NCBI GenBank assembly: GCA_944389495.1
Contig: CALXMN010000003.1
Location: forward strand, 10,862-74,861
Direction of reading: 5' to 3'
DNA from: an uncultured Alphaproteobacteria bacterium
GTDB lineage: Bacteria > Pseudomonadota > Alphaproteobacteria > Rs-D84
Length of the DNA stretch: 64,000 bases
In this document: positions 3,583 through 61,237 of the stretch, one piece after another
Layout: each line of letters opens with the position of its first letter
How positions within the stretch are numbered: the stretch's first letter is position 1
The notes under the pieces: generated by a model
Databases searched by the model: none
What the model was told of the DNA's origin: nothing
What the model saw: the letters and a program-made list of their open reading frames with translations, nothing else
Made by a program: the position numbers and the translations under genes

Positions 3583-3598
3583 AATAATCGGGATTAAT

Positions 3599-4759: not shown

Positions 4760-4768
4760 GGATGCCTT

Positions 4769-5194: not shown

Positions 5195-5300
5195 TTTTCT
5201 TATCTCCTGAGTTTCCTTATAAAAAACCACCAAATACATTGGTGGCCAGGAGATTCGAAACAATTACCAGAATTGTGTCACTTATTTGATATTCGTGACC
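5195..5300 (-). promoter_or_regulatory. Structured 5' leader of A copy 1: two hairpins, the second terminator-like (ccaccaatgtatttggtgg + T-tract) just before the RBS
   Basis: Same architecture as the leaders of A copies 3, 4 and 5. Confidence 0.4.
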
Positions 5301-5392
5301 CTCCTGACCAAAAAATCAGGAGTTTATTTATCGTCGTAATAAAAAACAACGCACACGCGCCGTTCAAATATCGACGCTGGTATTCGGGTTTC

Positions 5393-5423
5393 GACACCCC
5401 ATCAATGGAACACCCATTGACAA
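5393..5423. promoter_or_regulatory. Conserved palindromic upstream motif GACACCCCATCAATGGAACACCCATTGACAA (A copy 1)
   Basis: The same motif sits 150-230 bp upstream of A copies 3, 4 and 5. It has an internal inverted repeat, TCAATGG/CCATTGA. Confidence 0.45.
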
Positions 5424-14314: not shown

Positions 14315-14410
14315 AAAGTATGCGCGGTCATAGTTAACATATGGACAAAAATCGTCGCTTGACTTGAATTATAAAATCACATAAAATATTGCATTGATAA
14401 GCAGTTTTTT

Positions 14411-14519
14411 ATGCCGAATTTAAACGTCCGTTTTATCGGGCGTTTTTATTTTATAAAAAAATCCGATTTTCCGCACTTTTTGCTTTTATGTATATGCCGA
14501 AAAAAAACGGACGTTTGGA
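14411..14519. repeat. GCCGAA palindromic element (degenerate copy)
   Basis: ATGCCGAATTTAAACGTCCG...internal hairpin...ATGCCGAAAAAAAACGGACGTTTGGATTCGGC. Same architecture as the elements at 27885 and 49555. It lies directly upstream of A copy 2. Confidence 0.5.
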
Positions 14520-14545
14520 TTCGGCCAAAAATCAGGGGAAAAATA

Positions 14546-14953
14546 ATGGGTGTTTTAAAGACTTTGTTTTTGCTTGTAATCGCAATTACATTCTGCCAAC
14601 CGGCGTCTGCCGTTACCAAATGCGTAAAATTAAATTCATCAACAACGTGTTCCGATTATTCGGGCGCATTCGGTCAATCAAATTGGTCCGCGACATGCGG
14701 TGGCATATCAATACAGGGTGTTACATTTTGTGGTTCGCAAAACGGCGGTTCAGTTGGTGCAACAACCGACGCCGTTACGACCAGTTCAACCAATAAATAT
14801 TGTTGGTGTAAAATGGTATCACCTGCGGTGTCGCGCTGGGTTTTCGCCGGCGCGGATGATCATTGCGCGTACCGTTGCGCGGACGCCTGTGCGGGCTTCG
14901 CTCCGGCCACTGAGACTTTCCGGTCTGCGTTGTTCTCGGGTCTCGGCGATTGA
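14546..14953 (+). CDS. Family A secreted Cys-rich protein (copy 2)
   Basis: RBS aggggaaaaataATG. MGVLKTLFLLVIAITFCQPASAVTKCVKLNSS...NKYCWCKMVSPAVSRWVF...FRSALFSGLGD. Confidence 0.6.
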   Translation: MGVLKTLFLLVIAITFCQPASAVTKCVKLNSSTTCSDYSGAFGQSNWSATCGGISIQGVTFCGSQNGGSVGATTDAVTTSSTNKYCWCKMVSPAVSRWVFAGADDHCAYRCADACAGFAPATETFRSALFSGLGD

Positions 14954-15136
14954 TATATACGTAAATGCGTATGCGAATGCATACGCCGGTAACAGGTGGG
15001 GGTATGGGGGCGGATTCTCCGCCCCCGTGGAAAACAGATATGATAAAGGGGATTTATATAAAATAACGTAAGTTTTTTACATCAGGTTCCCAGCCACAAC
15101 TGGGAACAGGTTGCATCGCCGTATGCAGTCGTCGCA

Positions 15137-15270
15137 CGTCTTTCTCTGCGGTGTCGCGCTGGGTTTTCAACAACGCGAACACGTCGGCCGGTTCTTGCGC
15201 GAACAACGTTCAGAACAATGCGTCTTTCCGGTCCGCGTTGTTCTCGGGTCTCGGCTCCTTTGACAGGAAT
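15137..15270 (+). pseudogene. Promoter-less 3' fragment of a family A gene (candidate silent cassette)
   Basis: Two conserved boxes, ctgcggtgtcgcgctgggttttc and tttccggtc(c/t)gcgttgttctcgggtctcggc, are shared with the 3' end of A copy 2 at 14815-14950. They bracket a divergent ~80-bp segment encoding VSRWVFNNANTSAGSCANNVQNNASFRSALFSGLG. It has no start codon and no signal peptide. Confidence 0.5.
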
Positions 15271-15498
15271 ATACAGTTTGGCCAACCTGCGGGACGGGTG
15301 CAACAGCACCTTTCAGATGATATTCATCTGTTTTGCCTGTTATCCAAGGCGGGGTGGTGCGACCTTTTTGGACGCGTAAAACGCGGCCTTAAAAATACAA
15401 TGCGCAGGGGACGTCTGGGTTAGTAGTCGTATATGATATGAATATTATGTCTGTTGTGACAGAACGCCCGGGGCGTCCAATGGAATATCGGGGGGAAT

Positions 15499-15825
15499 AT
15501 GACATTGGATGAAATAAATAACCTGAATGGCAATATGTGCCCGAGATTTTCAACGTTTGCTAGGGATAAATTGCCAATGCCCGGCAAGAAAAAACGCCTT
15601 GACGAGATATTAAACCGCGAAATCATCGTGACTGATTTCAGAATTACTAAATCTAAAAAACGTGATGGAACAGATTGTCTGCGATTGCAATTTATTATTG
15701 ATGGTAATGTCTGTGTTGCTTTTACTGGCAGTGCTGTTTTATCAGACCAAATTCAATCGGCCAAAGATAACATACCTTTTCGTGGAACAATTGTAAAAAT
15801 AGACCGATATTACTCTTTCTCTTAA
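15499..15825 (+). CDS. Hypothetical protein (108 aa), inserted between A and B of cassette copy 2
   Basis: ORF only. No recognisable motif. Confidence 0.3.
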   Translation: MTLDEINNLNGNMCPRFSTFARDKLPMPGKKKRLDEILNREIIVTDFRITKSKKRDGTDCLRLQFIIDGNVCVAFTGSAVLSDQIQSAKDNIPFRGTIVKIDRYYSFS

Positions 15826-15847
15826 CACAACAACAGGGGGTTAAATT

Positions 15848-16126
15848 ATGAAATATTTTTATGTTTATCTGCTTTTATTAATACCATCAACTGTATATGC
15901 CGCCGAACCATCAACATCGTGCCCATCGGGTTATGTCGCAATAGAAGAAGAATATATGGATATTGCGGATGGTTCGTGCCCATCTGGATATACATCCGCC
16001 GGTACGGCGGACAGTTGTCTGATTTCGTCACCCGCCGGTTCATGCATAATGTACGCACCGGCAAATACAGAATACAGTGATGATGTCGGTGCGTATAAAT
16101 TTATCGTTGATTGCCCGATGGAATAA
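15848..16126 (+). CDS. Family B small secreted Cys-rich protein (copy 2)
   Basis: RBS caggggg. MKYFYVYLLLLIPSTVYAAEPSTSCPSGYVAIEEEYMDIADGSCPSGYTSAGTADSCLISSPAGSCIMYAPANTEYSDDVGAYKFIVDCPME. Confidence 0.6.
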   Translation: MKYFYVYLLLLIPSTVYAAEPSTSCPSGYVAIEEEYMDIADGSCPSGYTSAGTADSCLISSPAGSCIMYAPANTEYSDDVGAYKFIVDCPME

Positions 16127-20722: not shown

Positions 20723-20750
20723 GTCAATGGGCGTTCCATTGATGGGGTGT
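20723..20750. promoter_or_regulatory. Conserved palindromic upstream motif (A copy 3): TGTCAATGGGCGTTCCATTGATGGGGTGT
   Basis: Same motif as at 5393, 27129 and 38208. Its orientation relative to the downstream A gene is constant. Confidence 0.45.
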
Positions 20751-20759
20751 GAAGACCTC

Positions 20760-20893
20760 TGCCTTAGCGTCGGAAAATAAGAAAACGTGCGGCGCGTGTA
20801 AATGCGCCGGTTTTAATATTCCGACGATAAATAAACTCCTGACCAACAATGTATTTGGTGGTTTTCTTATTCAGAAAAAACAGGAGTTTGAAA
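20760..20893 (+). promoter_or_regulatory. Structured 5' leader of A copy 3 with a hairpin before RBS caggag
   Basis: Contains ctcctgaccaacaatgtatttggtggttttc, related to the copy 1 leader. Confidence 0.35.
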
Positions 20894-21325
20894 ATGAAAT
20901 TAAAAATTTTGATTGCGGGCGTTGCGGTATTCTGTGTTATCGTTGCGCCGGCTGCGGCGGTTGTAAAGTGTGTAAAATTGACACAAAGTTCAACCTGTAC
21001 ATCAACAACTGCTAACAATTCTGGTCCAGAATGGACCGCAACCTGTGGTGGAACACCAATCAAAGGCATCGGTATTTGCAGCGATAAAAAAGGAAGTTCT
21101 GTCGGCTCAAAATCATCCAGTCTGACCATAGATTACTATACAGACTAAAATAAGTATTGTTGGTGTAAAATTATCAGTCCCGCCGTATCATCACAATGGA
21201 CATACGATGATTATAATTACACTTCGGGGGCTGATTGTGCGCGTGATTGTGCCTATGGCTGTGCCGCAGACATAGAAATAAATGCTGCGCTTCGTTCTTC
21301 GTTATTATATGGTTTTTCTGATTAA
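20894..21325 (+). pseudogene. Family A secreted Cys-rich protein (copy 3), interrupted by one in-frame TAA at 21146-21148
   Basis: MKLKILIAGVAVFCVIVAPAAAVVKCVKLTQSS...TIDYYTD*NKYCWCKIISPAVSSQW...AALRSSLLYGFSD. One frame throughout, with conserved motifs on both sides of the stop. Confidence 0.5.
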
Positions 21326-21341
21326 AAACGGGTAATTAAAA

Positions 21342-21617
21342 ATGAAAAAAATAATATTATTTTTGGCAATTGTGCCGTGTGCATCATTTGCGGCCGCGCC
21401 GTCAACATCGTGTCCATCGGGCACAATGGCCATAAACAAACAATATATGATAATTGGTAATACATCGTGTCCGTCGGGGTATTCATATGTTGGGGCGGCA
21501 TATACGTGCCTTTTGACATATCGCGGCAGTTCGTGTCTGATGTATGCGCCGGTAAACACGGAATACACAGATGCCGCCGGCACATACGAATATACCGCCG
21601 CCTGTCCATTGGAATAA
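21342..21617 (+). CDS. Family B small secreted Cys-rich protein (copy 3)
   Basis: MKKIILFLAIVPCASFAAAPSTSCPSGTMAINKQYMIIGNTSCPSGYSYVGAAYTCL...CLMYAPVNTEYTDAAGTYEYTAACPLE. Confidence 0.6.
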   Translation: MKKIILFLAIVPCASFAAAPSTSCPSGTMAINKQYMIIGNTSCPSGYSYVGAAYTCLLTYRGSSCLMYAPVNTEYTDAAGTYEYTAACPLE

Positions 21618-25839: not shown

Positions 25840-26235
25840 TCATTGCAAGGAAGGGCGCCCGGCAATCTTCTCTTGTCATTGCGAGCCACGTCAGTGGCGT
25901 GGCAATCCAGTAAATAAAAAAGCACTGCGGGCATCGCCCGCAGACATAATAAACCTGAATTGCTTCGTTTCACTCGCAATGACAATGTACTTATGCAGCC
26001 GTTGTTTCCTATAGTTGTACGACTTTTGTCTCCCCATTTGTCATTGCAAGGGAGGAGCACCCGGCAATCTTCTTTTGTCATTGCGAGCCACGTCAGTGGC
26101 GTGGCAATCCATAATACGGTATTTGCCACCGCAAATAAGTTTATAATAACTGGATCGCCACGGTCGTTACACTCCCTCGCGATGACAAGGGTTGGGGACA
26201 CGGGCGCCACCAGTGCGTCACGTTACGGGATGACG
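25840..26235. repeat. Array of MITE-like palindromic elements with terminal inverted repeats TTGTCATTGCGAG / CTCGCAATGACAA
   Basis: Several units, each with an internal hairpin (GCCACGTCAGTGGCGTGGC, CTGCGGGCATCGCCCGCAG). The array is reiterated at 36992-37300 and 52375-52470. Confidence 0.6.
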
Positions 26236-26238
26236 GAA

Positions 26239-26526
26239 TTATTCCAGTGGACAGGCCTGGTCAAATTCATATGTGCCGTATGTGTCTGTGTATTCTGTAT
26301 ATGCCGGTGCATACATAATGCACGCCCCAGACGGTGACGCCACCAAACAACTGTCCGCAGTGCCGACGGATGTGTATCCGGATGGGCACGAACCATCCGA
26401 TATTATTAAATATTCTTCTTCTATTGTTGCATAGTCCGACGGGCACGATGTTGACGGTGCGGCGGCAAATGATGCACACGGCACAATCGCCATAATTAAA
26501 ACCGATATTCGTTTCATATTCGCCAC
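26239..26526 (-). CDS. Family B small secreted Cys-rich protein (copy 4)
   Basis: MANMKRISVLIMAIVPCASFAAAPSTSCPSDYATIEEEYLIISDGSCPSGYTSVGTADSCLVASPSGACIMYAPAYTEYTDTYGTYEFDQACPLE. Confidence 0.6.
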   Translation of the reverse strand: MANMKRISVLIMAIVPCASFAAAPSTSCPSDYATIEEEYLIISDGSCPSGYTSVGTADSCLVASPSGACIMYAPAYTEYTDTYGTYEFDQACPLE

Positions 26527-26532
26527 CCCAAT

Positions 26533-26961
26533 TTAGTCAGACAGATTACTGAACATCGCGGACCGGAAAGACGCATTGTCCGCTGCGCGGTACGCACAGC
26601 TGTACGCGCAACGATAGCCACAATACGACGTCCCGAGGACGTTGTTGTACACCCAAGACGACACGGCCGGAGATACCATTTTGCACCAGCAATATTTGTC
26701 ATCAGTACCGCCACTAATTTCCAAAGCCGTCGCTGTCTGGCCAATTGAACTGCCACTTGTGCTGGAACATTGACTTATGCCCCTTATTGCGATACTTGTT
26801 CCACTGGTGGTACAATTTGATGTCCAGTCAACAACATTATACCCAGGCTCAACAAACGAACACGTTGTTGATGATGACAGTTTTACGCATTTTGTGACGG
26901 CCGCGGCCGGTGGGATTGTGGCCGCACAAATCAGACCCGCGATTAATATTTTTGATTTCAT
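26533..26961 (-). CDS. Family A secreted Cys-rich protein (copy 4)
   Basis: RBS aaggag. MKSKILIAGLICAATIPPAAAVTKCVKLSSSTTC...DDKYCWCKMVSPAVSSWVY...ASFRSAMFSNLSD. Confidence 0.6.
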   Translation of the reverse strand: MKSKILIAGLICAATIPPAAAVTKCVKLSSSTTCSFVEPGYNVVDWTSNCTTSGTSIAIRGISQCSSTSGSSIGQTATALEISGGTDDKYCWCKMVSPAVSSWVYNNVLGTSYCGYRCAYSCAYRAADNASFRSAMFSNLSD

Positions 26962-27078
26962 TGTGAACACTCCTTGTGTTTGGGTAAAACAAAAACCACC
27001 AAATTTAAGGTGGTTGGAGGTTCATAGCTATATCAGGTATAGTGTGCTTATTCTATATATTCGCAGCCCTCCAACCCG
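26962..27078 (-). promoter_or_regulatory. Conserved structured leader of A copy 4: long-range helix GGTTGGAGG/CCTCCAACC, then terminator-like hairpin CCACCTTAAATTTGGTGG + T-tract, then RBS
   Basis: About 100 nt, nearly identical to 38050-38165 upstream of A copy 5. Confidence 0.45.
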
Positions 27079-27128
27079 AAACAGTTGGAGCATTTTTACA
27101 TCTTGGTTTGATGCCTGAAAACGGGCTA

Positions 27129-27160
27129 TGACACCCCATCAATGGAACACCCATTGACAA
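27129..27160. promoter_or_regulatory. Conserved palindromic upstream motif (A copy 4): TGACACCCCATCAATGGAACACCCATTGACAA
   Basis: See 5393, 20723 and 38208. Confidence 0.45.
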
Positions 27161-27270
27161 CAGTTATTATAATCACAACAAAAATTCATTTGCAATATGA
27201 AAAATAAATCCTTTGATTTTAGTACGCGGTGCATATAAAATGTAAAACATAAATAAACAAGGAGTTGTCT

Positions 27271-27810
27271 ATGTGGGTTACAATTGCGGTCATTGCCGTT
27301 GTTTTGTTGTATTTCATTTTGGTATATAACGGTCTGGTTTCACGGCGAAACCAAGTACGCGAGGCGTGGTCCACCATCGACACGCAGTTAAAACGTCGGT
27401 ATGATTTGATTCCGAATCTTATTGAAACGGTGCGTGGCGCGGCCAAGCACGAGCGTGAAACACTGGAATCCGTAACCCGTGCGCGTGATGCGGCAATGGC
27501 CGCAAACGGCGCAGATCGTGCGGATGCAGAAAATAAATTAACAGAAACATTAAAAAATTTATTTGCGATTTCTGAAAATTATCCAACTTTGCGTGCGAAT
27601 GAAAATTTCTTGGAACTCCAGCGCGAATTGACGGACACAGAAACAAAAATCCAGGCCGCGCGCCAGTTTTATAATAATGTTGTAATGGGACTTAACACGC
27701 AAATAGAACAATTTCCATCAAACCTGGTTGCGCGTATGTTTAATATAACACCCGAAAAAATGTTTGAAATGGATGCCGCGGAAAAGGCCGCACCCCGGGT
27801 TAAATTTTAA
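27271..27810 (+). CDS. lemA: LemA family protein
   Basis: N-terminal TM segment then NGLVSRRNQVREAWSTIDTQLKRRYDLIPNL..., typical LemA. RBS ggag. Confidence 0.85.
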   Translation: MWVTIAVIAVVLLYFILVYNGLVSRRNQVREAWSTIDTQLKRRYDLIPNLIETVRGAAKHERETLESVTRARDAAMAANGADRADAENKLTETLKNLFAISENYPTLRANENFLELQRELTDTETKIQAARQFYNNVVMGLNTQIEQFPSNLVARMFNITPEKMFEMDAAEKAAPRVKF

Positions 27811-27814
27811 TAAA

Positions 27815-27842
27815 ATCCCCATTGTTATGGGGATTTTTTATT
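27815..27842 (+). terminator. Intrinsic terminator after lemA
   Basis: aaaatccccattgttatggggatttttt. Confidence 0.6.
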
Positions 27843-27884
27843 TGACCTTGTGCCATATTTTATGTATTATATATTACGAAATAA

Positions 27885-27993
27885 ATGCCGAAAACAAACC
27901 ACCGGTTTATGGTGGCTTTTTTTGTGTTTTAAAAATCCCTGTTTTCTGGGGCTTTTTGTTTTTTTATTGTGCCGAATACAAACGGTGGTTTTG
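27885..27993. repeat. GCCGAA palindromic element
   Basis: ATGCCGAAAACAAACCACCGGTTTATGGTGG...internal hairpin (aaaatccctgttttctggggcttttt)...GCCGAATACAAACGGTGGTTTT. About 110 bp, with inverted termini. Copies at 49555 and 14411. Confidence 0.55.
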
Positions 27994-28015
27994 CACAGAT
28001 TTTGACTAAGGGGGA

Positions 28016-28726
28016 ATGTGTAAAATGAACCGTTCTTGTATAAGATTTTTTGGATATATTTTTGCCGGGATTACGTCGCTGATGGGGCGTATTAATAATG
28101 CCACTGCGGGACAAATAGGTAATACTTACTATGAAACAATTGTAAACCAAGTCCAGGCATATGGTTCAAGGTGTCGCAGCATAATTCAAGAATTATGCCC
28201 CGGCGCATACTGCAACGATTTTTCTGTTGATGGTTATGAATGTCGCGGTGATGGTTCGGGAATAATTTGTAACTCGCAATGGGTTTTTGCATATCGCAAT
28301 GCCGATTATACAGATGATATGGGGGTATATGCTTCTGATTCAAACAGTGACGGATGTCATTATACGGAATATGGAATGTGGAACAATTTTTCGCATTATG
28401 AATTTGATTCGTGTGTATTCGGTTCATATATTACAACGTCATCTATCCCGTCAAGAATTTATAATCTTTCCCAGATGGAACAATATTGCGCCCCGTGTTC
28501 GGGCCTTGATTATCGTGATGGTCAATTTATTACATATGACCCCAGTGGCGCGTTAAGCAGCAACTTTTTTTCTTGGTATTCACTGAATACCAGTAATCCA
28601 AATTCCCAGGTTGGAATAACAACCTGTCGCGCAGACCAAAATTATAGCGCCGGGGAACTTGAATTTTCGGATTCGTCGGGGCACGGAACAATTACAATTC
28701 CTATAAGTTGCACATATGTTGAATAG
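28016..28726 (+). CDS. Large Cys-rich secreted protein (about 236 aa). Hypothetical.
   Basis: Hydrophobic N-terminus with many Cys. Shares the YTDDMGVY...YTEYGMWNNFSHYEFDSC motif with family B. Followed by a glycosyltransferase gene. Confidence 0.5.
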   Translation: MCKMNRSCIRFFGYIFAGITSLMGRINNATAGQIGNTYYETIVNQVQAYGSRCRSIIQELCPGAYCNDFSVDGYECRGDGSGIICNSQWVFAYRNADYTDDMGVYASDSNSDGCHYTEYGMWNNFSHYEFDSCVFGSYITTSSIPSRIYNLSQMEQYCAPCSGLDYRDGQFITYDPSGALSSNFFSWYSLNTSNPNSQVGITTCRADQNYSAGELEFSDSSGHGTITIPISCTYVE

Positions 28727-28735
28727 GGTTTATTT

Positions 28736-29830
28736 ATGTCGTGCAAAATAAATGTTCTGGAAATTGATGCGCGTGATACAAATATGCAAAGTGGTATTGC
28801 GCGCTATATGGATGTTCTGGATGAATGTATGCCGGCATACGTTAATACATATCGCGTAATTTTTTATCGTGATGCAAACACCCAAGATGTGCAAATAAAA
28901 TTTTCTGGTAAAGAATTATCGATACGTCATCCATTAAATTTTCCACATCATACTTTGTTCGAACCCGTATTTGCAATGCTGGCCCCGATGCTGGGAAATA
29001 TGCAAAACATTATTGTAAAGTGCAATTGTTTGGGGCTCGAGTCATTTGTATACCTTGTTCGTAATCGTATTTGTTGCAAGACCATTGGAATTGTACACTG
29101 TATGCCGCCAATGCCAACCGTGTCGAATAATATCAGAACAAAAAATCCATTTTTCAATATGGATTATATAATTTTGGTTGCACCAAATGGGGCGCAATGG
29201 CTTAAATACGTTAACAATACACGGCCGTCCAGGATAATTGCCAATGGCATTCCAAAACCGATAATTTCGAACGCCAACCCCCAGGATGGTGTTTTCAGAT
29301 TTATATTTGCAAACGGATTGTCTGTGAACAAGGGTTTGGCAAAAATCATTCCTGCAATACGTCGGGTTGCCCAAAAACATAAACTGGAAGTAATGGTATT
29401 GGGTGGTGGCGGTACAAAAGACCAGGTTTTCGATGTATCTGATTTACCAATAAAGTTTATGGGGTATATATCCGATAAACAAAAATTAGCAGATATTTAT
29501 GCGAACTCTGATTGTGCATTGTTTGCATCCCGGTCCGAGGCCTGTTCTTTTGCCGGTATCGAGGCATTGGCATATAATCTGCCAATTATATCGGGACGTG
29601 CCACGGGATTAACCGAAATGTTTGATGGCGTTGCCAAGTTAATAGATTTCTTGCCGAATGGCGAAATTAATGTTGAACAATACGCCGATGCGATGATGGC
29701 GGTTATTGAAAATTCGCGTTTACGTAAAAAGATGGCGGTTTTATCATATTCGCGATATGTTTCGCGATATACCGCCGGGCGAATGATTCAAAAAACATTA
29801 AAATTGTACAAACAGGTTCTTGGTATATAA
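28736..29830 (+). CDS. Glycosyltransferase family 4 (GT-B fold)
   Basis: C-terminal GT4 signature ...FASRSEACSFAGIEALAYNLPIISGRATGLTEM. Confidence 0.75.
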   Translation: MSCKINVLEIDARDTNMQSGIARYMDVLDECMPAYVNTYRVIFYRDANTQDVQIKFSGKELSIRHPLNFPHHTLFEPVFAMLAPMLGNMQNIIVKCNCLGLESFVYLVRNRICCKTIGIVHCMPPMPTVSNNIRTKNPFFNMDYIILVAPNGAQWLKYVNNTRPSRIIANGIPKPIISNANPQDGVFRFIFANGLSVNKGLAKIIPAIRRVAQKHKLEVMVLGGGGTKDQVFDVSDLPIKFMGYISDKQKLADIYANSDCALFASRSEACSFAGIEALAYNLPIISGRATGLTEMFDGVAKLIDFLPNGEINVEQYADAMMAVIENSRLRKKMAVLSYSRYVSRYTAGRMIQKTLKLYKQVLGI

Positions 29831-32543: not shown

Positions 32544-33464
32544 ATGATGAACGAGTACGTTGTCGACTTTGTTAATTATTTGACACAGACGAAAAATTAT
32601 TCTGTGCATACGGCAACGTCGTATGAAATGGACATCTGCGACTTTATAAAGTTTTATAATAATTATATTGGCGCAGATGTTTCGTTATCGGACCTTGCGC
32701 GTGCCGATACAATTTGTTTTCGTGCGTGGTTGGCGGATCGGTCGCGTCGAAATTTGGCGCATAAGTCAACCGCGCGTGCATTATCGTCTTTACGCGGATT
32801 TTATAAATTCTTGGCCAAGCGTTACGGTGTGCAAAATAATGCAATTGGTTTAATTTCTTCGCCCAAGGTTCCGCGTAAATTATCCAAGGCCATCGATGTT
32901 GCCGATGTTAAACAGATGCACGATGCCATTCGTGAAATTGACGAACGTGAACCGTGGATTGCCGCGCGTGATTGGGCGTTGGTTTTATTGATGTTTGGAT
33001 GCGGCCTGCGCATATCCGAGGCATTATCTTTAAAAAATACAGATGTTCGCGGACGTCCCGATTCTTTGCGTATTTTGGGCAAAGGCGCCAAGGAACGAAT
33101 TGTTCCCGTATTGCCGGCCGTATTGGATGCGATTGAAAAATATATTGCTGTGCGTCCATTTGGCAATGCGCCCGAAGACAAGTTGTTTCGCAGTATCCGT
33201 GGTTTGCCTATGTCGCCGCGTATGGCCGAAAAAGTTATCGAAAAATTGCGCCATTATTTACAGTTGCCCGATTATGTAACCCCGCACGCGTTGCGTCATA
33301 CTTTTGCGACGGCTTTGTTGGCGGGTGGGGCGGATTTACGTAGCCTCCAGGAATTATTGGGGCATTCGTCTATATCCACGACCCAATTATATACGCGTGT
33401 AAATATGTCAGAAATAATGAATGTTTACGAACACGCCCACCCATTGGCCGATTCCGATGAATAA
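32544..33464 (+). CDS. xerD: Tyrosine recombinase XerC/XerD
   Basis: HALRHTFATALLAGGADLRSLQELLGHSSISTTQLYTRV, with catalytic R..HxxR..Y. Confidence 0.8.
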   Translation: MMNEYVVDFVNYLTQTKNYSVHTATSYEMDICDFIKFYNNYIGADVSLSDLARADTICFRAWLADRSRRNLAHKSTARALSSLRGFYKFLAKRYGVQNNAIGLISSPKVPRKLSKAIDVADVKQMHDAIREIDEREPWIAARDWALVLLMFGCGLRISEALSLKNTDVRGRPDSLRILGKGAKERIVPVLPAVLDAIEKYIAVRPFGNAPEDKLFRSIRGLPMSPRMAEKVIEKLRHYLQLPDYVTPHALRHTFATALLAGGADLRSLQELLGHSSISTTQLYTRVNMSEIMNVYEHAHPLADSDE

Positions 33465-36991: not shown

Positions 36992-37300
36992 GGATTCATT
37001 GCGAGCCACGTTAGTGGCGCGGCAATCCTGTAAATAAAAAAGTACCGCGGGCATCGCCCGCAGACATAATAAAACTGGATTGCTTCGTTTTACTCGCAAT
37101 GACAATGTACTTATGCAGCCGTTGTTTCCTATAGTTGTACAACTTTTGCCTTTCCTCTTGTTATTGCGAGCCACACAGTGGCGTGGCAATCCATAATACG
37201 GTATTTGCCGCCGCAAATAAGTTTATAATAACTGGATCGCCACGGTCGTTACACTCCCTCGCGATGACAAGGGTGGGGGACACTGGCACCACCAGTGCGT
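36992..37300. repeat. MITE-like TTGTCATTGCGAG-type palindromic element array, part of the segmental duplication
   Basis: Homologous to 25869-26235, with point differences. Some differences are compensatory within hairpins. Confidence 0.6.
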
Positions 37301-37320
37301 CACGTTACGGGATGACGGAA

Positions 37321-37608
37321 TTATTCCAGCGGACAGGCCTGGTCAAATTCATATGTGCCGTATGTGTCTGTGTATTCTGTATATGCCGGTGCATACATAA
37401 TGTACGAACCCGCGGGTGACGAAATCAGACAACTGGTTGCAGTGCCGGCGGATGTGTAACCCGATGGGCACGAACCATCCGCAATATCCATATGTTCTTC
37501 CACCACCGTGACATATCCCGATGGACACGAAGTGGACGGCGCGGCGGCAAATGATGCACACGGCACAATCGCCATAATTAAAACCGATATTCGTTTCATA
37601 TTCGCCAC
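37321..37608 (-). CDS. Family B small secreted Cys-rich protein (copy 5)
   Basis: MANMKRISVLIMAIVPCASFAAAPSTSCPSGYVTVVEEHMDIADGSCPSGYTSAGTATSCLISSPAGSYIMYAPAYTEYTDTYGTYEFDQACPLE. Confidence 0.6.
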   Translation of the reverse strand: MANMKRISVLIMAIVPCASFAAAPSTSCPSGYVTVVEEHMDIADGSCPSGYTSAGTATSCLISSPAGSYIMYAPAYTEYTDTYGTYEFDQACPLE

Positions 37609-37614
37609 TCCAAT

Positions 37615-38040
37615 TTAGTCAGACAGATTACTGAACAACGCGGACCGTGTTGTTTCATTGGCACGGATAATGCTAGCACAATAATTACTACAAGAAGAGC
37701 AAGTCATAGCAGCGGAAACAGGGCCATTTATTACACCAAAGTATACCCATTGCGATACTGCGGGACTAATCATTCTGCACCAACAATACTCATTTGAATC
37801 AATTGAAGAAGCCATAGATAATGAAGTTGCCGTTGCGCCAAGGTCTTCGCCTTTTTGGTTGCTACAAAATGAAACGCCGCTGACAGACACGCCATTACAA
37901 GTCATAGACCAATCTGACCCTTTGCCGGAAACGTTTGAACACGTTGTTGATGACGTTAATTTTACGCATTTGGTAACGGCAAACGCCGGTGGGATTGTGG
38001 CCGCGCACAGCAGGCCGGCAATTAATAAATATTTTTTCAT
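37615..38040 (-). CDS. Family A secreted Cys-rich protein (copy 5)
   Basis: RBS aggagg. MKKYLLIAGLLCAATIPPAFAVTKCVKLTSSTTC...NEYCWCRMISPAVSQWVY...TTRSALFSNLSD. The ORF-track N-terminal extension is spurious. Confidence 0.6.
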   Translation of the reverse strand: MKKYLLIAGLLCAATIPPAFAVTKCVKLTSSTTCSNVSGKGSDWSMTCNGVSVSGVSFCSNQKGEDLGATATSLSMASSIDSNEYCWCRMISPAVSQWVYFGVINGPVSAAMTCSSCSNYCASIIRANETTRSALFSNLSD

Positions 38041-38049
38041 TCTAAACCT

Positions 38050-38165
38050 CCTTGTTTTCATTGCGAATGAAAAAACCACCAAATTTAAGGTGGTTGGAGG
38101 TTCATAGCTATATCAGGTATAGTGTGCTTATTCTATATATTCGCAACCCTCCAACCCGAAAGTGG
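38050..38165 (-). promoter_or_regulatory. Conserved structured leader of A copy 5
   Basis: Near-identical to 26962-27078. Confidence 0.45.
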
Positions 38166-38207
38166 AGGTGATTTTTTATGTCATCTCTGACAATTACAAA
38201 GGGCTAC

Positions 38208-38237
38208 TACACCCCATCAGTGAATACCCACTGACGG
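38208..38237. promoter_or_regulatory. Conserved palindromic upstream motif, variant TACACCCCATCAGTGAATACCCACTGACGG (A copy 5)
   Basis: The inverted repeat changes from CAATGG/CCATTG to CAGTG/CACTG. The palindrome is kept. Confidence 0.45.
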
Positions 38238-38366
38238 TTATTATAATATCGTGTTATGTTTATTAATGCAAGGGGTTAATACTTATACCCGACGTTCACG
38301 ATTACCGCCGAACCACCCCACAAATCATATACGTTGGAATAAAAACGCCGCCCATTTGGGCGGAAT

Positions 38367-44005: not shown

Positions 44006-44082
44006 GCGAGCGTAGCTCAGTTGGCTAGAGCGCAACCTTGCCAAGGTTGAGGTCGAGGGTTCGAGCCCCTTTGCTCGCACCA
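44006..44082 (+). tRNA. tRNA-Gly (anticodon GCC)
   Basis: GCGAGCG acceptor, D-loop AGTTGGCTA, anticodon loop TTGCCAA, T-loop TTCGAGC, 3' ACCA. Confidence 0.85.
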
Positions 44083-44300
44083 AAGTTTTGTAAAAATCCG
44101 CCGAATGGTGGATTTTTTTGTTGCTATTTTAATGCAAAGGGGCTCGAACCCGCAGGGTTGCGAGGCGAGCCGCAGGCGAAGTACTTTGCTCGCACCAAAG
44201 TTTTATAAAAATCCGCCGAATGGTGGATTTTTTTGTTGCTATTTTAATGCAAAGGGGCTCGAACCCGCAGGGGGTATGTCACACAACGTAAATCCTGTGC
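44083..44300 (+). repeat. Tandem ~110-bp duplication downstream of tRNA-Gly, containing tRNA 3'-end-like fragments
   Basis: Two near-identical units (aagttttgtaaaaatccgccgaatggtggatttttttgttgctattttaatgcaaaggggctcgaacccgcagg...) and a third partial unit. Each carries a terminator hairpin and a GGGGCTCGAACCCGCAGG T-arm-like segment. One also has ...tttgctcgcacca. Confidence 0.55.
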
Positions 44301-49392: not shown

Positions 49393-49554
49393 TTTGTATG
49401 TCGGCCCAGTAAAGTAATTTGATAAAATAAAATATCCACACGGTGGTGTAATATATTTTGCCCGCGATAATAAAAATGCGTCATATTAATTCCCAAATGA
49501 ATAAATTTTAGTTGACTGTACAATGAATTTTTTGATAACATATGCATAAGTGAG

Positions 49555-49663
49555 ATGCCGAAAACAAACCACCGTTTGGATTCGGCGTTTTTATTTTTGC
49601 CAAAATCCCGAAATTTCGGGATTTTTTTATTTCTTGGTATGCCGAATCCAAACGGTGGTTTTT
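49555..49663. repeat. GCCGAA palindromic element
   Basis: ATGCCGAAAACAAACCACCGTTTGGATTCGGC...aaaatcccgaaatttcgggattttttt...ATGCCGAATCCAAACGGTGGTTTTT. Directly upstream of the Cys-rich gene at 49684. Confidence 0.55.
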
Positions 49664-49683
49664 ATGAAAGCAAAGGAAAGAAA

Positions 49684-50391
49684 ATGAAAATTTTATTAAA
49701 AAGACATACGACTGCAAATGAATACAAGTATTCGCGCGGGGTAAAATTTCCTTTTTTTCATTGGTTTTTGGTTCTTGCCATCAGTGTGTGTGACTGGATA
49801 ATCAAGACAAATGATGCGATGGCGGCAACCTGTACCAGCACCCAGGCGGCGTCTTGTTCGGCCCAATGCCCCAGTCCGCTGTTTGGTTCTTGTGTCGCCA
49901 GTTATAATACATTCAGTTGCAGTTGTTACATTTCAAACGAGGCGTATTCCGGCGTATGCTCAGAATTTTCGGTACATCGTAATGCGTGTTTATTAGCTGT
50001 GAACAGTGCAATTAATTGCGGCAACGGGCGCAAGATTCATTGTATATCATATAATTTGAACAGTTATAATTGTACAACGGCCGGCGTTAATTCGGCCCAG
50101 GCCATTTGTGGTCGTGTATTTCCAATAAATCTTAATGCGACCAGTACGCAATGTTCCTGTATTTATTCTACGGTGGCAAATGGTGTTTGTAACTGTTTTG
50201 CGTGCAAGACATATTATTATGGGGTTGGTTGTTATAATTCGTGCCCATCATATTATGTGTCTGGATACGGCACAATATACGGTACCAGTGGTAAGTGGGG
50301 CGGAAACATAGGCAGTTGCACGGTTTCGGTCCCCGAAGGATGTGATACAACGGGTTGTTACAATGCACACACTTGTCCGTATAAAATCTAA
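49684..50391 (+). CDS. Large Cys-rich secreted protein (about 235 aa). Hypothetical.
   Basis: N-terminal TM or signal segment. About 40 Cys in C..C / CxC patterns. Followed by two glycosyltransferase genes. Confidence 0.5.
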   Translation: MKILLKRHTTANEYKYSRGVKFPFFHWFLVLAISVCDWIIKTNDAMAATCTSTQAASCSAQCPSPLFGSCVASYNTFSCSCYISNEAYSGVCSEFSVHRNACLLAVNSAINCGNGRKIHCISYNLNSYNCTTAGVNSAQAICGRVFPINLNATSTQCSCIYSTVANGVCNCFACKTYYYGVGCYNSCPSYYVSGYGTIYGTSGKWGGNIGSCTVSVPEGCDTTGCYNAHTCPYKI

Positions 50392-50399
50392 GGGTAAAT

Positions 50400-51362
50400 A
50401 TGCCAGAAATATCGATTATTATACCAAATAAAAATAATGCCTGTTTTTTGGACGATTGTTTAAATTCAGTATTAACCCAAACATTCCGGGATTGGGAATG
50501 TATCATAATCGACGACGGCAGCACGGATGATTCTGTTAAAATAATCAAGCGCTTTTGCAAGAAAGATAAACGTTTCAGATTAATAGAGCAAAAGTCACGC
50601 GGTGTTTCTGTGGCGCGAAATGTTGGCCTGGATAATATCAGTGGCAAATGGTGTTGCTTTTTGGATTCGGACGATGTTTTATTACACGAAGCATTTGAAA
50701 CAATGCTGTACGGTGTATCCGTAATGAACTATGATATAATCGAGGCGGATTCGGTTTTTGTTCACAAAGATTTTGTTTCGCATAAATACAATCCGTCATT
50801 TAGCCCGGCAAATATCGAGATATTTAATTTCGATGACATATACGAAGGAATTTCTAAGTACAGTAATAATATTGCCTGGGTCTGGCGCAGATTGTACAGA
50901 ACCGATTTGGCCAAGATGGCCCGCTTTCCCGAAAATATTCAAATTAATGAAGATTTATTGTGGTTTATGGATATTTTGTCTTTCAGACCACGTATCGCCA
51001 AAGTCAAAGCAACTGTTCTTTGGCATCGTATATGGGATAATTCTTTGACGCGTGCGGCGGGCGCGCCCGGGCGTCTGGAAGAATTAACAACGGTGATTGA
51101 TCGTATCGCAAAAAATGATAAAATACCGAAACATTTTTGTGACTATGTCATTCATAATTTGTTGTTCTGTATGATTCAATATGATTGCCACGAAGTCCAG
51201 TTATCAAAAAAAATAATTTCACCCAAATTGCGGAAAAAACTGTGGACGTATCGTAAACGGTACCGCAGGTTTTCGCGTGCATTTCGTCGATTTATTTATG
51301 CATTTTTAATAAAACAATTTTTCTTATATATGGCATACGGGAAAGATAAAAATGAAAATTAA
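50400..51362 (+). CDS. Glycosyltransferase family 2
   Basis: ISIIIPNKNNACFLDDCLNSVLTQTF..ECIIIDDGSTDDS and DSDD motifs. Confidence 0.8.
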   Translation: MPEISIIIPNKNNACFLDDCLNSVLTQTFRDWECIIIDDGSTDDSVKIIKRFCKKDKRFRLIEQKSRGVSVARNVGLDNISGKWCCFLDSDDVLLHEAFETMLYGVSVMNYDIIEADSVFVHKDFVSHKYNPSFSPANIEIFNFDDIYEGISKYSNNIAWVWRRLYRTDLAKMARFPENIQINEDLLWFMDILSFRPRIAKVKATVLWHRIWDNSLTRAAGAPGRLEELTTVIDRIAKNDKIPKHFCDYVIHNLLFCMIQYDCHEVQLSKKIISPKLRKKLWTYRKRYRRFSRAFRRFIYAFLIKQFFLYMAYGKDKNEN

Positions 51363-52215
51363 TGTTGCATTTGCATTTGATGGTAAATTGTGGCTGCAGT
51401 CAGCGGTAAGTATTTATTCTTTGTCATTACACACGGGCGGCGACAGATACAATATATATTGTTTAATTGATACATCTGTTCATAATGCTATGTGCGATGT
51501 GATACGTAATGTTGTTAAACATAATCGTCGGATAAAGATACATTTCTTGCGGTTTGATGCCGATATATTAAAGAACAATTGCTATGACGATGGTACAGCC
51601 CGATTTCCACGTGTGGCAATGGCGCGATTGTTTTTACCGAATATGTTGCCGCATCAGAAAAAAATTCTGTGGCTGGATTCGGATATAATTGTGTGTGATA
51701 ACTTATCAGGTTTATATAAAACGAATTTAACGGGTAATTTTATTGCGGCAATTCGTGATACGGGAATGGATGAAGTAATTAAAATGTATCCCAAAGAATT
51801 TAAACACTATGATGAATATGGTTTGACTGAAATGGTTCAAAGGTGTGAATATGTAAACAGCGGTGTTTTGTTAATGAATTTGCGGGAAATGCGTGCATAC
51901 GGATGGACAGAACGTTGCCTTGAACGAATATCATCTGAAAAACGTAATATATGGTACTTTGACCAAGATGTTATAAATTCGGTCAGTCGCGGTCATATTA
52001 AATATGTTTCGCCGCGTTATAATCGTATGACGAAAATCAATTTACAAAACGCAGTCAGTGCATATCAGCGGGCCGGATTGCCGACCGAGTCAATAATAGA
52101 CGGCTTTTTTGATTGTGCGATTTTACATTATGCCGGCACACAAAAACCTTGGCGACACGAAGGGCCATATTGGGATGTTTGGACGGCCTATGGCCAATTA
52201 AGCGGATTGTTCTAA
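51352..52215 (+). CDS. Glycosyltransferase family 8 (LPS glycosyltransferase-like)
   Basis: ILWLDSDIIV (DxD) and the typical GT8 C-terminus. Confidence 0.7.
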   Translation: MKINVAFAFDGKLWLQSAVSIYSLSLHTGGDRYNIYCLIDTSVHNAMCDVIRNVVKHNRRIKIHFLRFDADILKNNCYDDGTARFPRVAMARLFLPNMLPHQKKILWLDSDIIVCDNLSGLYKTNLTGNFIAAIRDTGMDEVIKMYPKEFKHYDEYGLTEMVQRCEYVNSGVLLMNLREMRAYGWTERCLERISSEKRNIWYFDQDVINSVSRGHIKYVSPRYNRMTKINLQNAVSAYQRAGLPTESIIDGFFDCAILHYAGTQKPWRHEGPYWDVWTAYGQLSGLF

Positions 52216-52261
52216 GGCGTTTTAATTTAAAAATATATGGATATTGTGTTGTCTGATTCCA

Positions 52262-52360
52262 TTACCCGTGGGTTCGTGCATTATGTTTGCGCCGCCATAT
52301 ACAGAATACAGTGACAGCACCGGCACATATGAATTTACGGCCGCCTGTCCGCTGGAATAA
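52262..52360 (+). pseudogene. Promoter-less 3' fragment of a family B gene (...MFAPPYTEYSDSTGTYEFTAACPLE*)
   Basis: Homologous to B C-termini. No N-terminus or signal peptide. Confidence 0.5.
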
Positions 52361-52374
52361 CCATATCATACTGT

Positions 52375-52470
52375 GCCCCCATCTTTGTCATTGCGAGGGG
52401 GGGGCAGCCGGCATTTTCTCTTGTCATTGCGAGCCATCGCAGATGGCGTGGCAATCCAGTTGTCTGATTC
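52375..52470. repeat. MITE-like TTGTCATTGCGAG elements (two units) between the two B 3' fragments
   Basis: ttgtcattgcgagggg... and ttgtcattgcgagccatcgcagatggcgtggcaatcc, the second with hairpin GCCATC-GCA-GATGGC. Confidence 0.55.
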
Positions 52471-52489
52471 CATCATCCGCGGTATGCCC

Positions 52490-52558
52490 CGGCAAATACA
52501 GAATACACGGAAGTATCCAGCATATATGAATATACCGCCGCCTGCCCACTGGAATAGA
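52490..52558 (+). pseudogene. Second promoter-less family B 3' fragment (...PANTEYTEVSSIYEYTAACPLE*)
   Basis: Reading-frame match to the B C-terminal motif. Confidence 0.45.
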
Positions 52559-52587
52559 TAAACAATCTCTGTTCTCCGTTCTCTGAA

Positions 52588-52612
52588 CAAACGGGGCAAA
52601 AGCCCCGTTTTT
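52588..52612 (-). terminator. Intrinsic terminator downstream of the RNase J gene
   Basis: aaacggggcaaaagccccgttttta. Confidence 0.5.
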
Positions 52613-60159: not shown

Positions 60160-60475
60160 AATTATATTCCTGGCCTGGATTATAGCGCACACATTGCCCG
60201 TTTCAATAAAAGATTCCCGATAATAAAAACTTGTTAACGAAACACATTTGTGTTAACCTGTGCAACGACGTGGGGAATTCCCGCGTTGGGGCATCTAAAC
60301 CTCTATGCTGTGTGTCCGTGGGGACATAAAATACCCTCCAACTCTTTTGGTTGGGGGACGGTGAATATATTGAATAAACCGTGCTATCTCACAGTATATA
60401 GTTTAGAACCTCCAACCACCTGATTTTTATCTGGTGGTTTTTTCGTTAACAAAATCGAAAAAAGGGTTCTAAAAA

Positions 60476-61237
60476 ATGAAGAAATCACTAATGTTCATCG
60501 TGGTGTGTGGACTGACAGGGCGGGCACTTGCCGGGTCTTTAAGTTGCACATCTACATATAATTCTTTACCATCGGGCTATTCTGCCGGCGGATCTGGCAC
60601 GTCGCCCAGTCATTGTTTAAGTTCTTATACTGGTTACCAATGTAACAGCAGTACACGCCAATGCGACACGGTGCAAAATTGTACCTCGTGTACATCGGGA
60701 TATTACCCCAGCCAGATTACCGTCCCCAGCAGTGGTGTTTGTTCTACTGTTACGTTTTCTTCGTGTTGTACCCAGTGCTATGATTGCACCAGCGATACCG
60801 ATTACCAATATTACAGTCCCGGCTATCTGCGCAAAGCAAATCGTTGGTGTAATTGTGGTGTTTGTGAAACATCGTACGTCTATAAGTGCGCCGACGGATA
60901 CTATGGCAACCCCGGCGATCAGCCAACCGGATGCGAACCGTGCAAAGAATGCGAAAACTGTGAATCAGACACCGAATGGAAACCCCAACAAATAGAAGGA
61001 TGGGTTGTTAAAGTAACCAGAACTTGTGAATGTGATGGCAGCTGTGTGATAGATAAAATTAGCAATGCGTGTGCTGCAGGGTATTATATGTCGTCTGGTT
61101 GCACCCGATGTCCGGGCGACGGTGATTCGGCCGTGGCCAGCTGGAATATAACAGACTGTTTTATTCCGGGGGGACAAACTCTTTCAGATGAAACTGGATC
61201 TTACGAGTATATATCGGACTGCTATTACAGTTTTTAA
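60476..61237 (+). CDS. Large Cys-rich secreted protein (253 aa). Hypothetical.
   Basis: Signal peptide. Many CxxC / GYY repeats. The C-terminal ETGSYEYISDCYYSF is related to the family B TEY..GTYEF..C motif. Confidence 0.5.
   Translation: MKKSLMFIVVCGLTGRALAGSLSCTSTYNSLPSGYSAGGSGTSPSHCLSSYTGYQCNSSTRQCDTVQNCTSCTSGYYPSQITVPSSGVCSTVTFSSCCTQCYDCTSDTDYQYYSPGYLRKANRWCNCGVCETSYVYKCADGYYGNPGDQPTGCEPCKECENCESDTEWKPQQIEGWVVKVTRTCECDGSCVIDKISNACAAGYYMSSGCTRCPGDGDSAVASWNITDCFIPGGQTLSDETGSYEYISDCYYSF

Follow-up and report, generated by a model that had tools for sequence, protein, structure and literature searches.

The region considered here, positions 28,016 to 29,830 of a 64,000-nucleotide stretch of DNA from an uncultured gut alphaproteobacterium (the whole stretch is called the window below), carries a gene for a secreted cysteine-rich (Cys-rich) protein that ends at 28726 and, after an operon-like gap of 9 nt, a glycosyltransferase (GT) gene of family GT4 that begins at 28736. 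Ahead of both genes lies an ~110-bp leader with two GCCGAA-containing boxes, which is termed the type-1 element. This arrangement (locus 1) is echoed elsewhere in the window by a second one (locus 2), in which a type-1 element precedes a different Cys-rich gene that is followed by a GT2 and a GT8 gene. Comparison with relatives suggests that the Cys-rich protein of locus 1, after whose gene the 28016 family is named here, and its GT4 form a functional pair. The source of the window is a Candidatus Enterousia of the gut (Alphaproteobacteria; order Rs-D84): its tryptophanyl-tRNA synthetase (TrpRS) is 88-92% identical to those of Ca. Enterousia and of metagenome-assembled genomes (MAGs) of uncultured gut Alphaproteobacteria, and the gene order lemA-rpsD-trpS-SIMPL is kept between the window and related MAGs. 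Enterousia genomes are smaller than 1 Mb and are without amino-acid, nucleotide and lipid biosynthesis, and the lineage is considered reduced and partner-dependent (PMC12306168).

The three Cys-rich secreted open reading frames (ORFs) named in the preliminary description (28016/28025-28726, 49684-50391 and 60476-61237) are real and encode proteins whose N-termini, as read from the sequence, are signal-peptide-like; at ~235-250 aa they are not the large proteins that they had been taken for. None of the three has a match in Pfam or NCBIfam. For the 28016 protein, a word-index homology search returned its own species only, and an exhaustive phmmer search recovered weak relatives (P0005-P0008, E 1e-6 to 6e-4) that have length, signal peptide and Cys pattern in common with it. 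The family so defined is rare and ranges from ~210 to 360 aa; its alignment contains 17 invariant columns, with the motifs F..C..G.Y, C.PCSG, W and SCRA, plus G.F.....C.Y near the C-terminus. A twin-arginine signal was considered for the conserved N-terminus MxRxFIRxxG and rejected because there is no RR motif.

The earlier GT4, GT2 and GT8 assignments are borne out by Pfam and NCBIfam profiles. For the enzyme of locus 1, membership of CAZy GT4 (Pfam Glycos_transf_1) is supported by profile, fold and motif alike. It scores 55.8 bits with PF13692 (Glyco_trans_1_4, cut-off 27) and 52.6 bits with PF00534 (Glycos_transf_1, cut-off 26.4), its AlphaFold2 model has a GT-B fold (predicted local distance difference test (pLDDT) 90.1, predicted TM-score (pTM) 0.87), and the E-x7-E motif is present, with E268 invariant and E276 nearly so among 38 sequences. 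As read from the sequence, the enzyme has neither a signal peptide nor a transmembrane segment. The best matches listed in a fold search with the model were MshA (TM-score 0.77), BshA, sucrose-phosphate synthase, PglA and SdgB, all of them generic retaining GT4 enzymes, and sequence searches of the PDB with the GT4, GT2 and GT8 likewise gave generic matches only. The GT4 belongs to a subfamily of ~80 orthologue clusters that align over the full length at 43-55% identity; where their sources are named, these are gut Alphaproteobacteria or 'Rickettsiales' MAGs, or mis-binned genomes.

Eight GT4 contexts, the window included, were examined for the coupling of this subfamily to the 28016 family. 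A 28016-family member lies directly upstream on the same strand in six of the eight, with gaps of -11 to +123 nt; the GT4 enzymes in the relatives' contexts are 45-55% identical. Besides the window, these are L098/L099, where the GT4, with 47% identity over 359 aa, comes after four tandem 28016-family paralogues; L100 and L101; and L103 and L104, whose upstream proteins were recognised by a hidden Markov model (HMM) with E-values of 4e-24 and 2e-29, respectively. In L105, where the GT4 is part of a GT2-GT4 fusion, the upstream gene encodes a different Cys-rich secreted protein with another type of leader (type 2, described below), and in L102 it encodes an unrelated 160-aa Cys-containing membrane protein. 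The flanking genes vary among the contexts (lemA/rpsD, accA.../cysS, comM/OMP, uvrD.../rpoD, M23/APH). Since the adjacency recurs in divergent relatives with differing flanks, it supports a functional coupling at locus 1, and the comparison gives good support to the suggestion that the 28016 family and the GT4 are a functional pair. Of the dedicated Cys-rich/GT coupling that had been proposed for both loci, this functional pairing at locus 1 is the part that stands. The fusion of a GT4 orthologue to a GT2 domain occurs in two relatives (P0077, at L105 5001-6857, and P0080; 618-627 aa). It suggests that the GT4 may act in multi-step glycan assembly, and it recalls the GT2 and GT8 of locus 2.

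The lemA|rpsD gap into which locus 1 falls measures ~110-170 nt in related species or carries a PHP-phosphatase gene, and a pair of 28016-family and GT4 genes was never found in this gap among the relatives examined. In one metagenomic relative (L107) the gap holds a type-1 element and a Cys-rich remnant, without a GT. The additional block in the window consists of a promoter-like site, the element, the Cys-rich gene and the GT4 gene, stops 6 nt before the conserved rpsD promoter region, and has a GC content of 39% against ~44% for the window. Judged from gene order, the window species acquired locus 1 by insertion at a site between lemA and the promoter of rpsD.

The preliminary description had noted a GCCGAA palindromic element before both GT-bearing loci and had read the loci as copies of one repeated module. 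The element before both is confirmed (73% identity over 108 nt, ungapped, between 27885-27992 and 49555-49662), and a two-box pattern built on it matches the window three times against 0 expected. The bare hexamer GCCGAA is not meaningfully enriched (61 occurrences against 47 expected). The module itself is not repeated, for the Cys-rich proteins of the two loci are unrelated (BLASTP E>1) and their GT families differ; what recurs is the layout and the ~110-bp leader only.

Each type-1 box has the form GCCGAAnnnAAAC-XXXX-G, and the two boxes stand 83-86 nt apart from start to start. The tetranucleotide of box2 is the reverse complement of that of box1 and differs among elements (CACC/GGTG, GTCC/GGAC, GGCC/GGCC, CAGC/GCTG, GGTG/CACC). 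Box1 runs into a hairpin that is either long (GCCGAAnnCAAAC-XXXX-GTTTGnnTTCGGC, then a T-run) or short (AAAC-XXXX-G...C-X'X'X'X'-GTTT, then a T-run), the centre is semi-conserved (AAAATCCCtGaTTTCtGCAT), and in some copies it folds into another hairpin that is followed by a T-run. Box1 has a sigma-70-like site 12-25 nt upstream, with similar sites before the elements in L103, L104 and L107, and box2 lies 10-90 nt ahead of the start codon. When 20 distinct elements were compared, drawn from the window, from genomes of relatives and from metagenomes, the 9-bp complementarity between box1 and box2 is kept in 95.6% of cells, with 22 double changes and neither G-U pairs nor one-sided changes; none of 500 shuffles reached the observed score. 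The local hairpin is less well kept, with 70.6% of cells paired and G-U pairs present.

All three type-1 copies in the window precede Cys-rich genes, as do the two interpretable copies in related-genome loci (L015, 676 aa with 50 Cys; L019, 206 aa with 20 Cys). A two-box scan of metagenomes matched 52 stretches, about three-quarters of which were high-GC chance matches or tandem repeats and were dropped on composition and non-complementary cores; the other 13 are elements of low GC content whose cores are complementary or nearly so. A Cys-rich ORF (6.5-11% Cys) begins at most 34 nt downstream in at least 10 of these, two more (L107, L120) have Cys-rich sequence downstream with no clear start, and the last (L115) is cut by the contig end. 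No GT4, GT2 or GT8 homologues were found at the 13 loci. The element thus precedes Cys-rich genes with or without a GT and marks these genes and not the GTs; by this comparison it is a hallmark of several Cys-rich gene families rather than of GT modules. To tie it to a module of a Cys-rich gene and a GT, as had been implied, was the wrong emphasis; the third window copy stands before a GT-less gene. Searched against Rfam at the gathering score, the window yielded only three tRNAs, and E-value scans of 26900-28100 and 60150-60500 gave sub-threshold matches only for either leader type; among the Rfam matches, sRNA-Xcc1 was rejected (28 bits against a gathering score of 53).

Features of the window discussed in the text, with coordinates, strand and remarks
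Feature	Coordinates	Strand	Remarks
Locus 1
Sigma-70-like promoter, TTGACC-17-TATTAT	27842..27870	+	10/12; consensus match only
Type-1 element, copy 1	27884..27995	+	precedes the 28025 Cys-rich gene; box1 27887-27904; terminator-like hairpin + T-run 27899-27925; second hairpin + T-run 27937-27960; box2 27971-27988
Secreted Cys-rich protein, 13 Cys	28025..28726	+	233 aa from ATG 28025; start 28016 adds 3 aa
GT4 glycosyltransferase	28736..29830	+	retaining, GT-B, predicted cytoplasmic; PF13692, PF00534
Locus 2
Sigma-70-like promoter, TTGACT-18-TAACAT with TG	49512..49541	+	consensus match only
Type-1 element, copy 2	49554..49665	+	precedes the 49684 gene; long-form hairpin GCCGAAAACAAAC-CACC-GTTTGGATTCGGC + T-run; central hairpin 49602-49625 + T-run; box2 49641-49661 repeats 49566-49586 in inverted orientation, perfectly over 21 bp
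Orphan secreted Cys-rich protein, 235 aa, 24 Cys	49684..50391	+	signal-peptide-like N-terminus
GT2 glycosyltransferase	50400..51362	+	PF00535, E 1.5e-30
GT8 glycosyltransferase	51352..52215	+	PF01501, E 1.8e-35, 123 bits
Two B-family Cys-rich remnants and a short palindromic repeat	52248..52556	+	tblastn; repeat families D2, D3, D7
Other Cys-rich genes and leaders
Type-1 element, copy 3, core GTCC/GGAC	14410..14530	+	followed by A-family Cys-rich gene 14546-14953; GT not nearby
A/B cassette	4478-5203	-	with leader 4478-5416; A copy at 5203 frame-disrupted
A/B cassette	14546-16126	+	fragment at 15148-15255
A/B cassette	20849-21617	+	with partial leader 20727-21617; A copy at 20888 frame-disrupted
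A/B cassette	26239-26970	-	leader 26971-27153, A 26533-26961, B 26239-26526
A/B cassette	37321-38082	-	with leader 37321-38231
Type-2 leader, ~190 nt	60271..60465	+	ends in CCACC...GGTGG terminator-like hairpin + T-run
Type-2 leader, other copies	5204-5416, 26971-27153, 38048-38231	-
Type-2 leader, partial copy	20727-20886	+
Secreted Cys-rich protein, 253 aa, 28 Cys	60476..61237	+	signal-peptide-like N-terminus

At locus 2 the spacing is again operon-like, with a gap of 8 nt between 50391 and 50400 and an 11-nt overlap of the GT2 and GT8 genes. Word-index searches with the 49684 protein found homologues in its own species only, and in the same-species strain contigs the GT2 and GT8 genes are always downstream of its gene. 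Between strains, the 49684 gene shows 12 nucleotide differences (9 non-synonymous, 3 synonymous codons), against 3 in each of the two GT genes (jointly 1 non-synonymous, 5 synonymous); it evolves ~5x faster than the adjoining GTs, with a non-synonymous excess, a pattern that would fit an exposed protein under diversifying or relaxed selection. The GT8 belongs to Pfam GT8, and its relatives in the PDB are LgtC (E 1e-14, over residues 89-276 only) and WbbM. With the model for lipopolysaccharide (LPS) 3-alpha-galactosyltransferase (RfaI/WaaI, NF011718) it scores 65.7 bits, far from the cut-off of 461, and its neighbours are the Cys-rich gene, the GT2 gene and RNase J, with no core-oligosaccharide cluster. 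The nearest NCBIfam model of the GT2 is PRK10073, far under the cut-off; TuaG is also a match, and chondroitin synthase and GalT1 are its relatives in the PDB. The spacer between the GT8 gene and the convergent RNase J gene (window 52216-52610; L092-L097 8864-9627) varies from 396 to 763 nt among same-species strains; built of B-gene remnants and short repeats, it is by its make-up a probable recombination-prone spot. Locus 2 may be a unit analogous to locus 1 assembled from unrelated parts, or just an adjacent surface-glycan operon.

The Cys-rich repertoire extends well beyond the three genes first named, which left out about ten more (five A/B cassettes and fragments). The window contains no fewer than 11 intact genes for Cys-rich secreted proteins, besides pseudogenes; about one-sixth of its genes are of this kind, and most have no GT nearby. 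In each A/B cassette an A gene (~140 aa) is followed by a B gene (~92 aa), both products being secreted, Cys-rich and without Pfam matches. The A family is recognised by VTKCVKL...KYCWCKMVSPAVS...FRSALFSGL and the B family by PSTSCPSGY...DGSCPSGYTS. The third of the originally named genes, at 60476, stands without a GT; the C-terminal ~55 aa of its product resemble the B family, and it has homologues in related species (45% identity in L007, 30% in L012).

This gene and most A-family genes are preceded by the type-2 leader, which is unrelated to type 1 and occurs also in L007, L012, L016 and L105; most of its copies precede Cys-rich secreted genes, among them those of the A and 60476 families. 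RNAalifold, applied to 10 copies from the window and these four loci, predicts 34 pairs, 18 of them with compensatory changes; the predicted structure is closed by a long-range helix, encloses three hairpins and finishes with the CCACC...GGTGG hairpin and its U-run. As read from the alignments, CCUCCAAC is present twice, each copy complementary to GUUGGAGG, so that alternative pairings are possible. The type-2 leader is a candidate for a new cis-regulatory RNA, either a riboswitch or an attenuator.

Several further observations concern the repertoire and its surroundings. Otherwise unrelated Cys-rich families end in C-x-Y plus 2-3 residues (CTYVE, CPYKI, CYYSF, CPYVE, CSYTE), often with G-[ST]-[FY]-x-[FIL] before it. 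The carriers are the products of 28025-28726, 49684-50391 and 60476-61237 and the proteins of L098, L100, L101, L103 and L104; this common end could be a domain terminus or a sorting signal. The segments 25876-27170 and 36996-38250 are a ~1.3-kb segmental duplication with 79-93% identity. A ~60-nt palindromic repeat (TTGTCATTGCGAGCC...GGCGTGGCAATCC) flanks Cys-rich cassettes in the window (25849-25909, 26051-26111, 52397-52457) and in L100 (~3574-3830); its translation gives spurious '...LAMT/...RNDN' ORFs, which occur in many bacterial genomes. At 44069-44272 an 89-nt tandem duplication, 99% identical and 115 nt apart, takes in the tRNA-Gly(GCC) 3' end together with its terminator; integration at this tRNA could have left it as a scar.

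Taken together, the explanation that we regard as the best overall, and hold with middling confidence, is that of a variable Cys-rich repertoire within which locus 1 is a conserved, relocatable unit of a protein and a GT4 that modifies its neighbour with sugar, under leader regulation that is shared with other members. The lineage would invest heavily in a lineage-specific, fast-evolving set of small Sec-exported Cys-rich proteins. In the 28016-29830 unit, the promoter and structured leader would drive a 28016-family protein and then a dedicated cytoplasmic GT4, which would most likely supply the sugar modification for the adjoining protein. It might do so by glycosylating Ser/Thr-rich stretches of the unfolded precursor ahead of export, or by making the first sugar of a glycan that ends on the Cys-rich protein; the pair together would amount to a variable surface or secreted glycoprotein for cell-cell or host contact. 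The type-1 element before both GT-bearing units and before many GT-less Cys-rich genes would place them under common regulation, either by attenuation or by on/off switching. Direct glycosylation of the 28016 protein by the GT4 is what we infer from the pairing, and the Thr/Pro/Ser-rich inserts of some family members (L100, L104, L101), together with a GT4 without an export signal, hint weakly that the protein is the acceptor.

Several findings weigh against this explanation. The GT4 of L102 has no 28016-family member upstream, and the family member P0008/L158, on a short contig, has no GT4 downstream. The window 28016 protein itself contains no long Ser/Thr tract, and AlphaFold2, given a 5-sequence alignment, produced no usable model of it (pLDDT 30). 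The preliminary description had looked to GT structure and homology for the likely acceptor; the comparison was informative as to family, but the fold matches of the GT4 are generic, so the type of acceptor is unreadable from structure, and the GT2 and GT8 come nearest to lipooligosaccharide (LOS), O-antigen or polysaccharide enzymes, with scores far under the cut-offs. Moreover, the two GT-adjacent Cys-rich proteins are unrelated and most Cys-rich genes are without a GT, from which it follows that glycosylation is not a general requirement of the repertoire.

The likeness of the GT2 and GT8 to envelope enzymes leads to another explanation, mainly of locus 2, which we consider somewhat unlikely: the GTs would be ordinary enzymes of envelope glycans (LOS core, capsule or glycolipid) in variable, horizontally exchanged islands with surface-protein genes, and adjacency would reflect co-location or co-regulation of surface determinants instead of an enzyme-substrate relation. 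It agrees with the closest relatives of the GT8 (LgtC of LOS, WbbM of O-antigen and the LPS 3-alpha-galactosyltransferase model) and of the GT2 (PRK10073, TuaG and chondroitin synthase), with the diderm envelope of the organism (BamD, an autotransporter and MurJ), and with the low GC and strain-variable downstream spacer, which mark an island; the 49684 protein has no homologues with which its linkage to the GTs could be assessed. However, every NCBIfam match falls far under the equivalog cut-off, the tight spacing of locus 2 includes no internal terminator, and the pairing of the GT4 with one rare family in differing contexts is hard to explain by chance. It is much less probable that the Cys-rich proteins act like glycocins, as secreted toxins or bacteriocin-like effectors, with the GT serving maturation or self-protection. 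In favour of this, the proteins are small and secreted, rich in disulfides, quick to evolve and present in multiple copies, the GT4 has a weak match to PF20706 'GT4 in conflict systems' (28 bits, cut-off 26), its top NCBIfam match is TIGR04157, a GT of peptide-modification loci, and the GT2 weakly matches SunS-type S-glycosyltransferases. The last two matches nevertheless reflect generic GT domains far under the family cut-offs: the GT4 reaches 80.9 of the 400 bits set for TIGR04157 (Bacteroidetes radical-SAM/GG-peptide loci), over its C-terminal half only, and the GT2 reaches 22.1 of 350 bits for TIGR04195 (SunS-type), over a generic GT2 N-domain and beside a 235-aa protein with a Sec signal. 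No immunity, export or protease genes were found adjoining, and proteins of 230-250 aa with ordinary Sec signal peptides are unlike glycocins of ~40 aa.

With regard to the type-1 element, the layout of promoter, hairpin and U-run fits a static 5' leader with tandem intrinsic terminators that would act by attenuation. Alternatively, and in our view improbably, the element would be a DNA inversion switch for phase variation, with the boxes as recombination sites whose arms are conserved and whose core is variable but matched. If the ~55-70-bp centre were flipped, the terminators would be lost (cwpV-like) or an internal promoter redirected (fimS/hin-like), and single Cys-rich genes, with their GTs where present, would be switched on or off. 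The elements do have the layout of an invertible switch, with perfect inverted repeats of 9-21 bp and promoter-like sites outside, or inside in L142. The strict Watson-Crick pairing of the boxes, whereas the local hairpin tolerates G-U, and a core that varies among elements yet matches within each are as expected of paired recombination sites, and the order of promoter, left repeat, hairpin with U-run, right repeat and ribosome-binding site is the cwpV design (PMC2784873). In L142 (1304-1406; also L147 and L151) the element fills the entire space between two A-A-B operons that diverge as mirror images, and its centre contains the only strong promoter (TTGACA-18-TATTAT, 11/12), aimed at one operon; this layout is what a promoter-inversion toggle would need. 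The window also has a tyrosine recombinase gene (32544-33464), but its product resembles housekeeping XerC/D and its position is conserved in strain contigs. No flipped copy was seen in 17 same-species contigs and three L142-type contigs, although assemblies show the majority state only. The repeats are very closely spaced, and the GCCGAA arm is on the same (5') side of both boxes, unlike in a simple inverted site pair. 'GGTG-first' elements, regarded as whole reversed elements, are consistent with reversal in L019 and inconsistent with it in L015. A mobile element of the miniature inverted-repeat transposable element (MITE) or Correia type does not agree with the position of nearly all interpretable copies directly 5' of Cys-rich genes. 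On a bolder interpretation, which we likewise hold to be doubtful, this partner-dependent bacterium with a genome below 1 Mb would run an antigenic or phase-variation system of more than 10 paralogous or unrelated Cys-rich surface proteins, some with dedicated GTs and few expressed at once, each gene being controlled either by a miniature invertible switch of ~85 bp, whose variable crossover core is matched, or by the riboswitch-like ~190-nt leader.

Rs-D84 and Enterousia bacteria are widespread in the gut and have minimal genomes, and to our knowledge their means of contacting a partner or host is not known. The Cys-rich secreted proteins of Enterousia are obvious candidates for such an interface, and the conserved pair of 28016 family and GT4 provides a concrete, testable case of dedicated protein glycosylation in the Rs-D84 lineage. 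The two leaders, neither of which is in Rfam, define a regulon and are candidates for a new attenuator, a riboswitch or an unusually small invertible switch.

Among known systems, the outer-core enzymes of LOS and LPS (Neisseria LgtC, enterobacterial RfaI/RfaJ, WaaH/PRK10073) share with locus 2 the GT8 and GT2 families and overlapping tandem genes, but the window enzymes score far under the equivalog cut-offs and are encoded behind a Cys-rich gene and leader and not in a core-oligosaccharide cluster. Locus 1 is best compared with dedicated pairs of a GT and an adhesin: GtfA/GtfB with serine-rich-repeat adhesins, SdgA/SdgB with SD-repeat proteins, Aah/TibC with AIDA-I/TibA, and HMW1C with HMW1. 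In these, too, a cytoplasmic GT gene lies beside, and is conserved with, one exported protein family; GtfA and SdgB are also GT4 enzymes, and SdgB is among the structural matches of the window GT4. The partner in the window differs in being a Cys-rich protein of ~230 aa, neither an autotransporter nor a long adhesin of the Ser-rich or SD-repeat kind, the sequence likeness of the GT4 to these enzymes is at family level only, and glycosylation here is putative. A GtfA/GtfB system proper is not indicated, as the neighbours are lemA, rpsD, trpS and others, the candidate substrate is Cys-rich without a Ser-repeat, and locus 1 has no GtfB-like chaperone or accessory Sec genes nearby.

A close counterpart of the type-1 element is the Clostridioides difficile cwpV switch, where the promoter stands outside the inverted repeats and the OFF state has a terminator at their left junction (Emerson et al. 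2009, PMC2784873). In both, a promoter lies upstream of the left inverted repeat, a hairpin with a ~9-bp stem and a U-tract is found at the junction, and the right repeat is followed, after a few tens of nt, by the start codon of a gene for a surface protein. The type-1 repeats are ~84 nt apart against 195 bp in cwpV (PMC2784873), the alternative orientation was not seen among the contigs compared and no dedicated recombinase was identified in the window, and the type-1 element precedes many genes. With Correia elements of Neisseria, REP/BIME and Rickettsia palindromic elements it shares a length of ~110 bp, terminal inverted repeats, several copies per genome and hairpins with T-runs; unlike them, it stands in nearly all copies directly before a Cys-rich gene, keeps a constant 83-86 nt between its boxes and is conserved, together with its gene class, from one species to another. 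Overall, the parts are new and the kind is familiar: this minimal gut symbiont has a large Cys-rich secretome that evolves fast, one family of which is accompanied by a dedicated GT4, and two conserved leaders.

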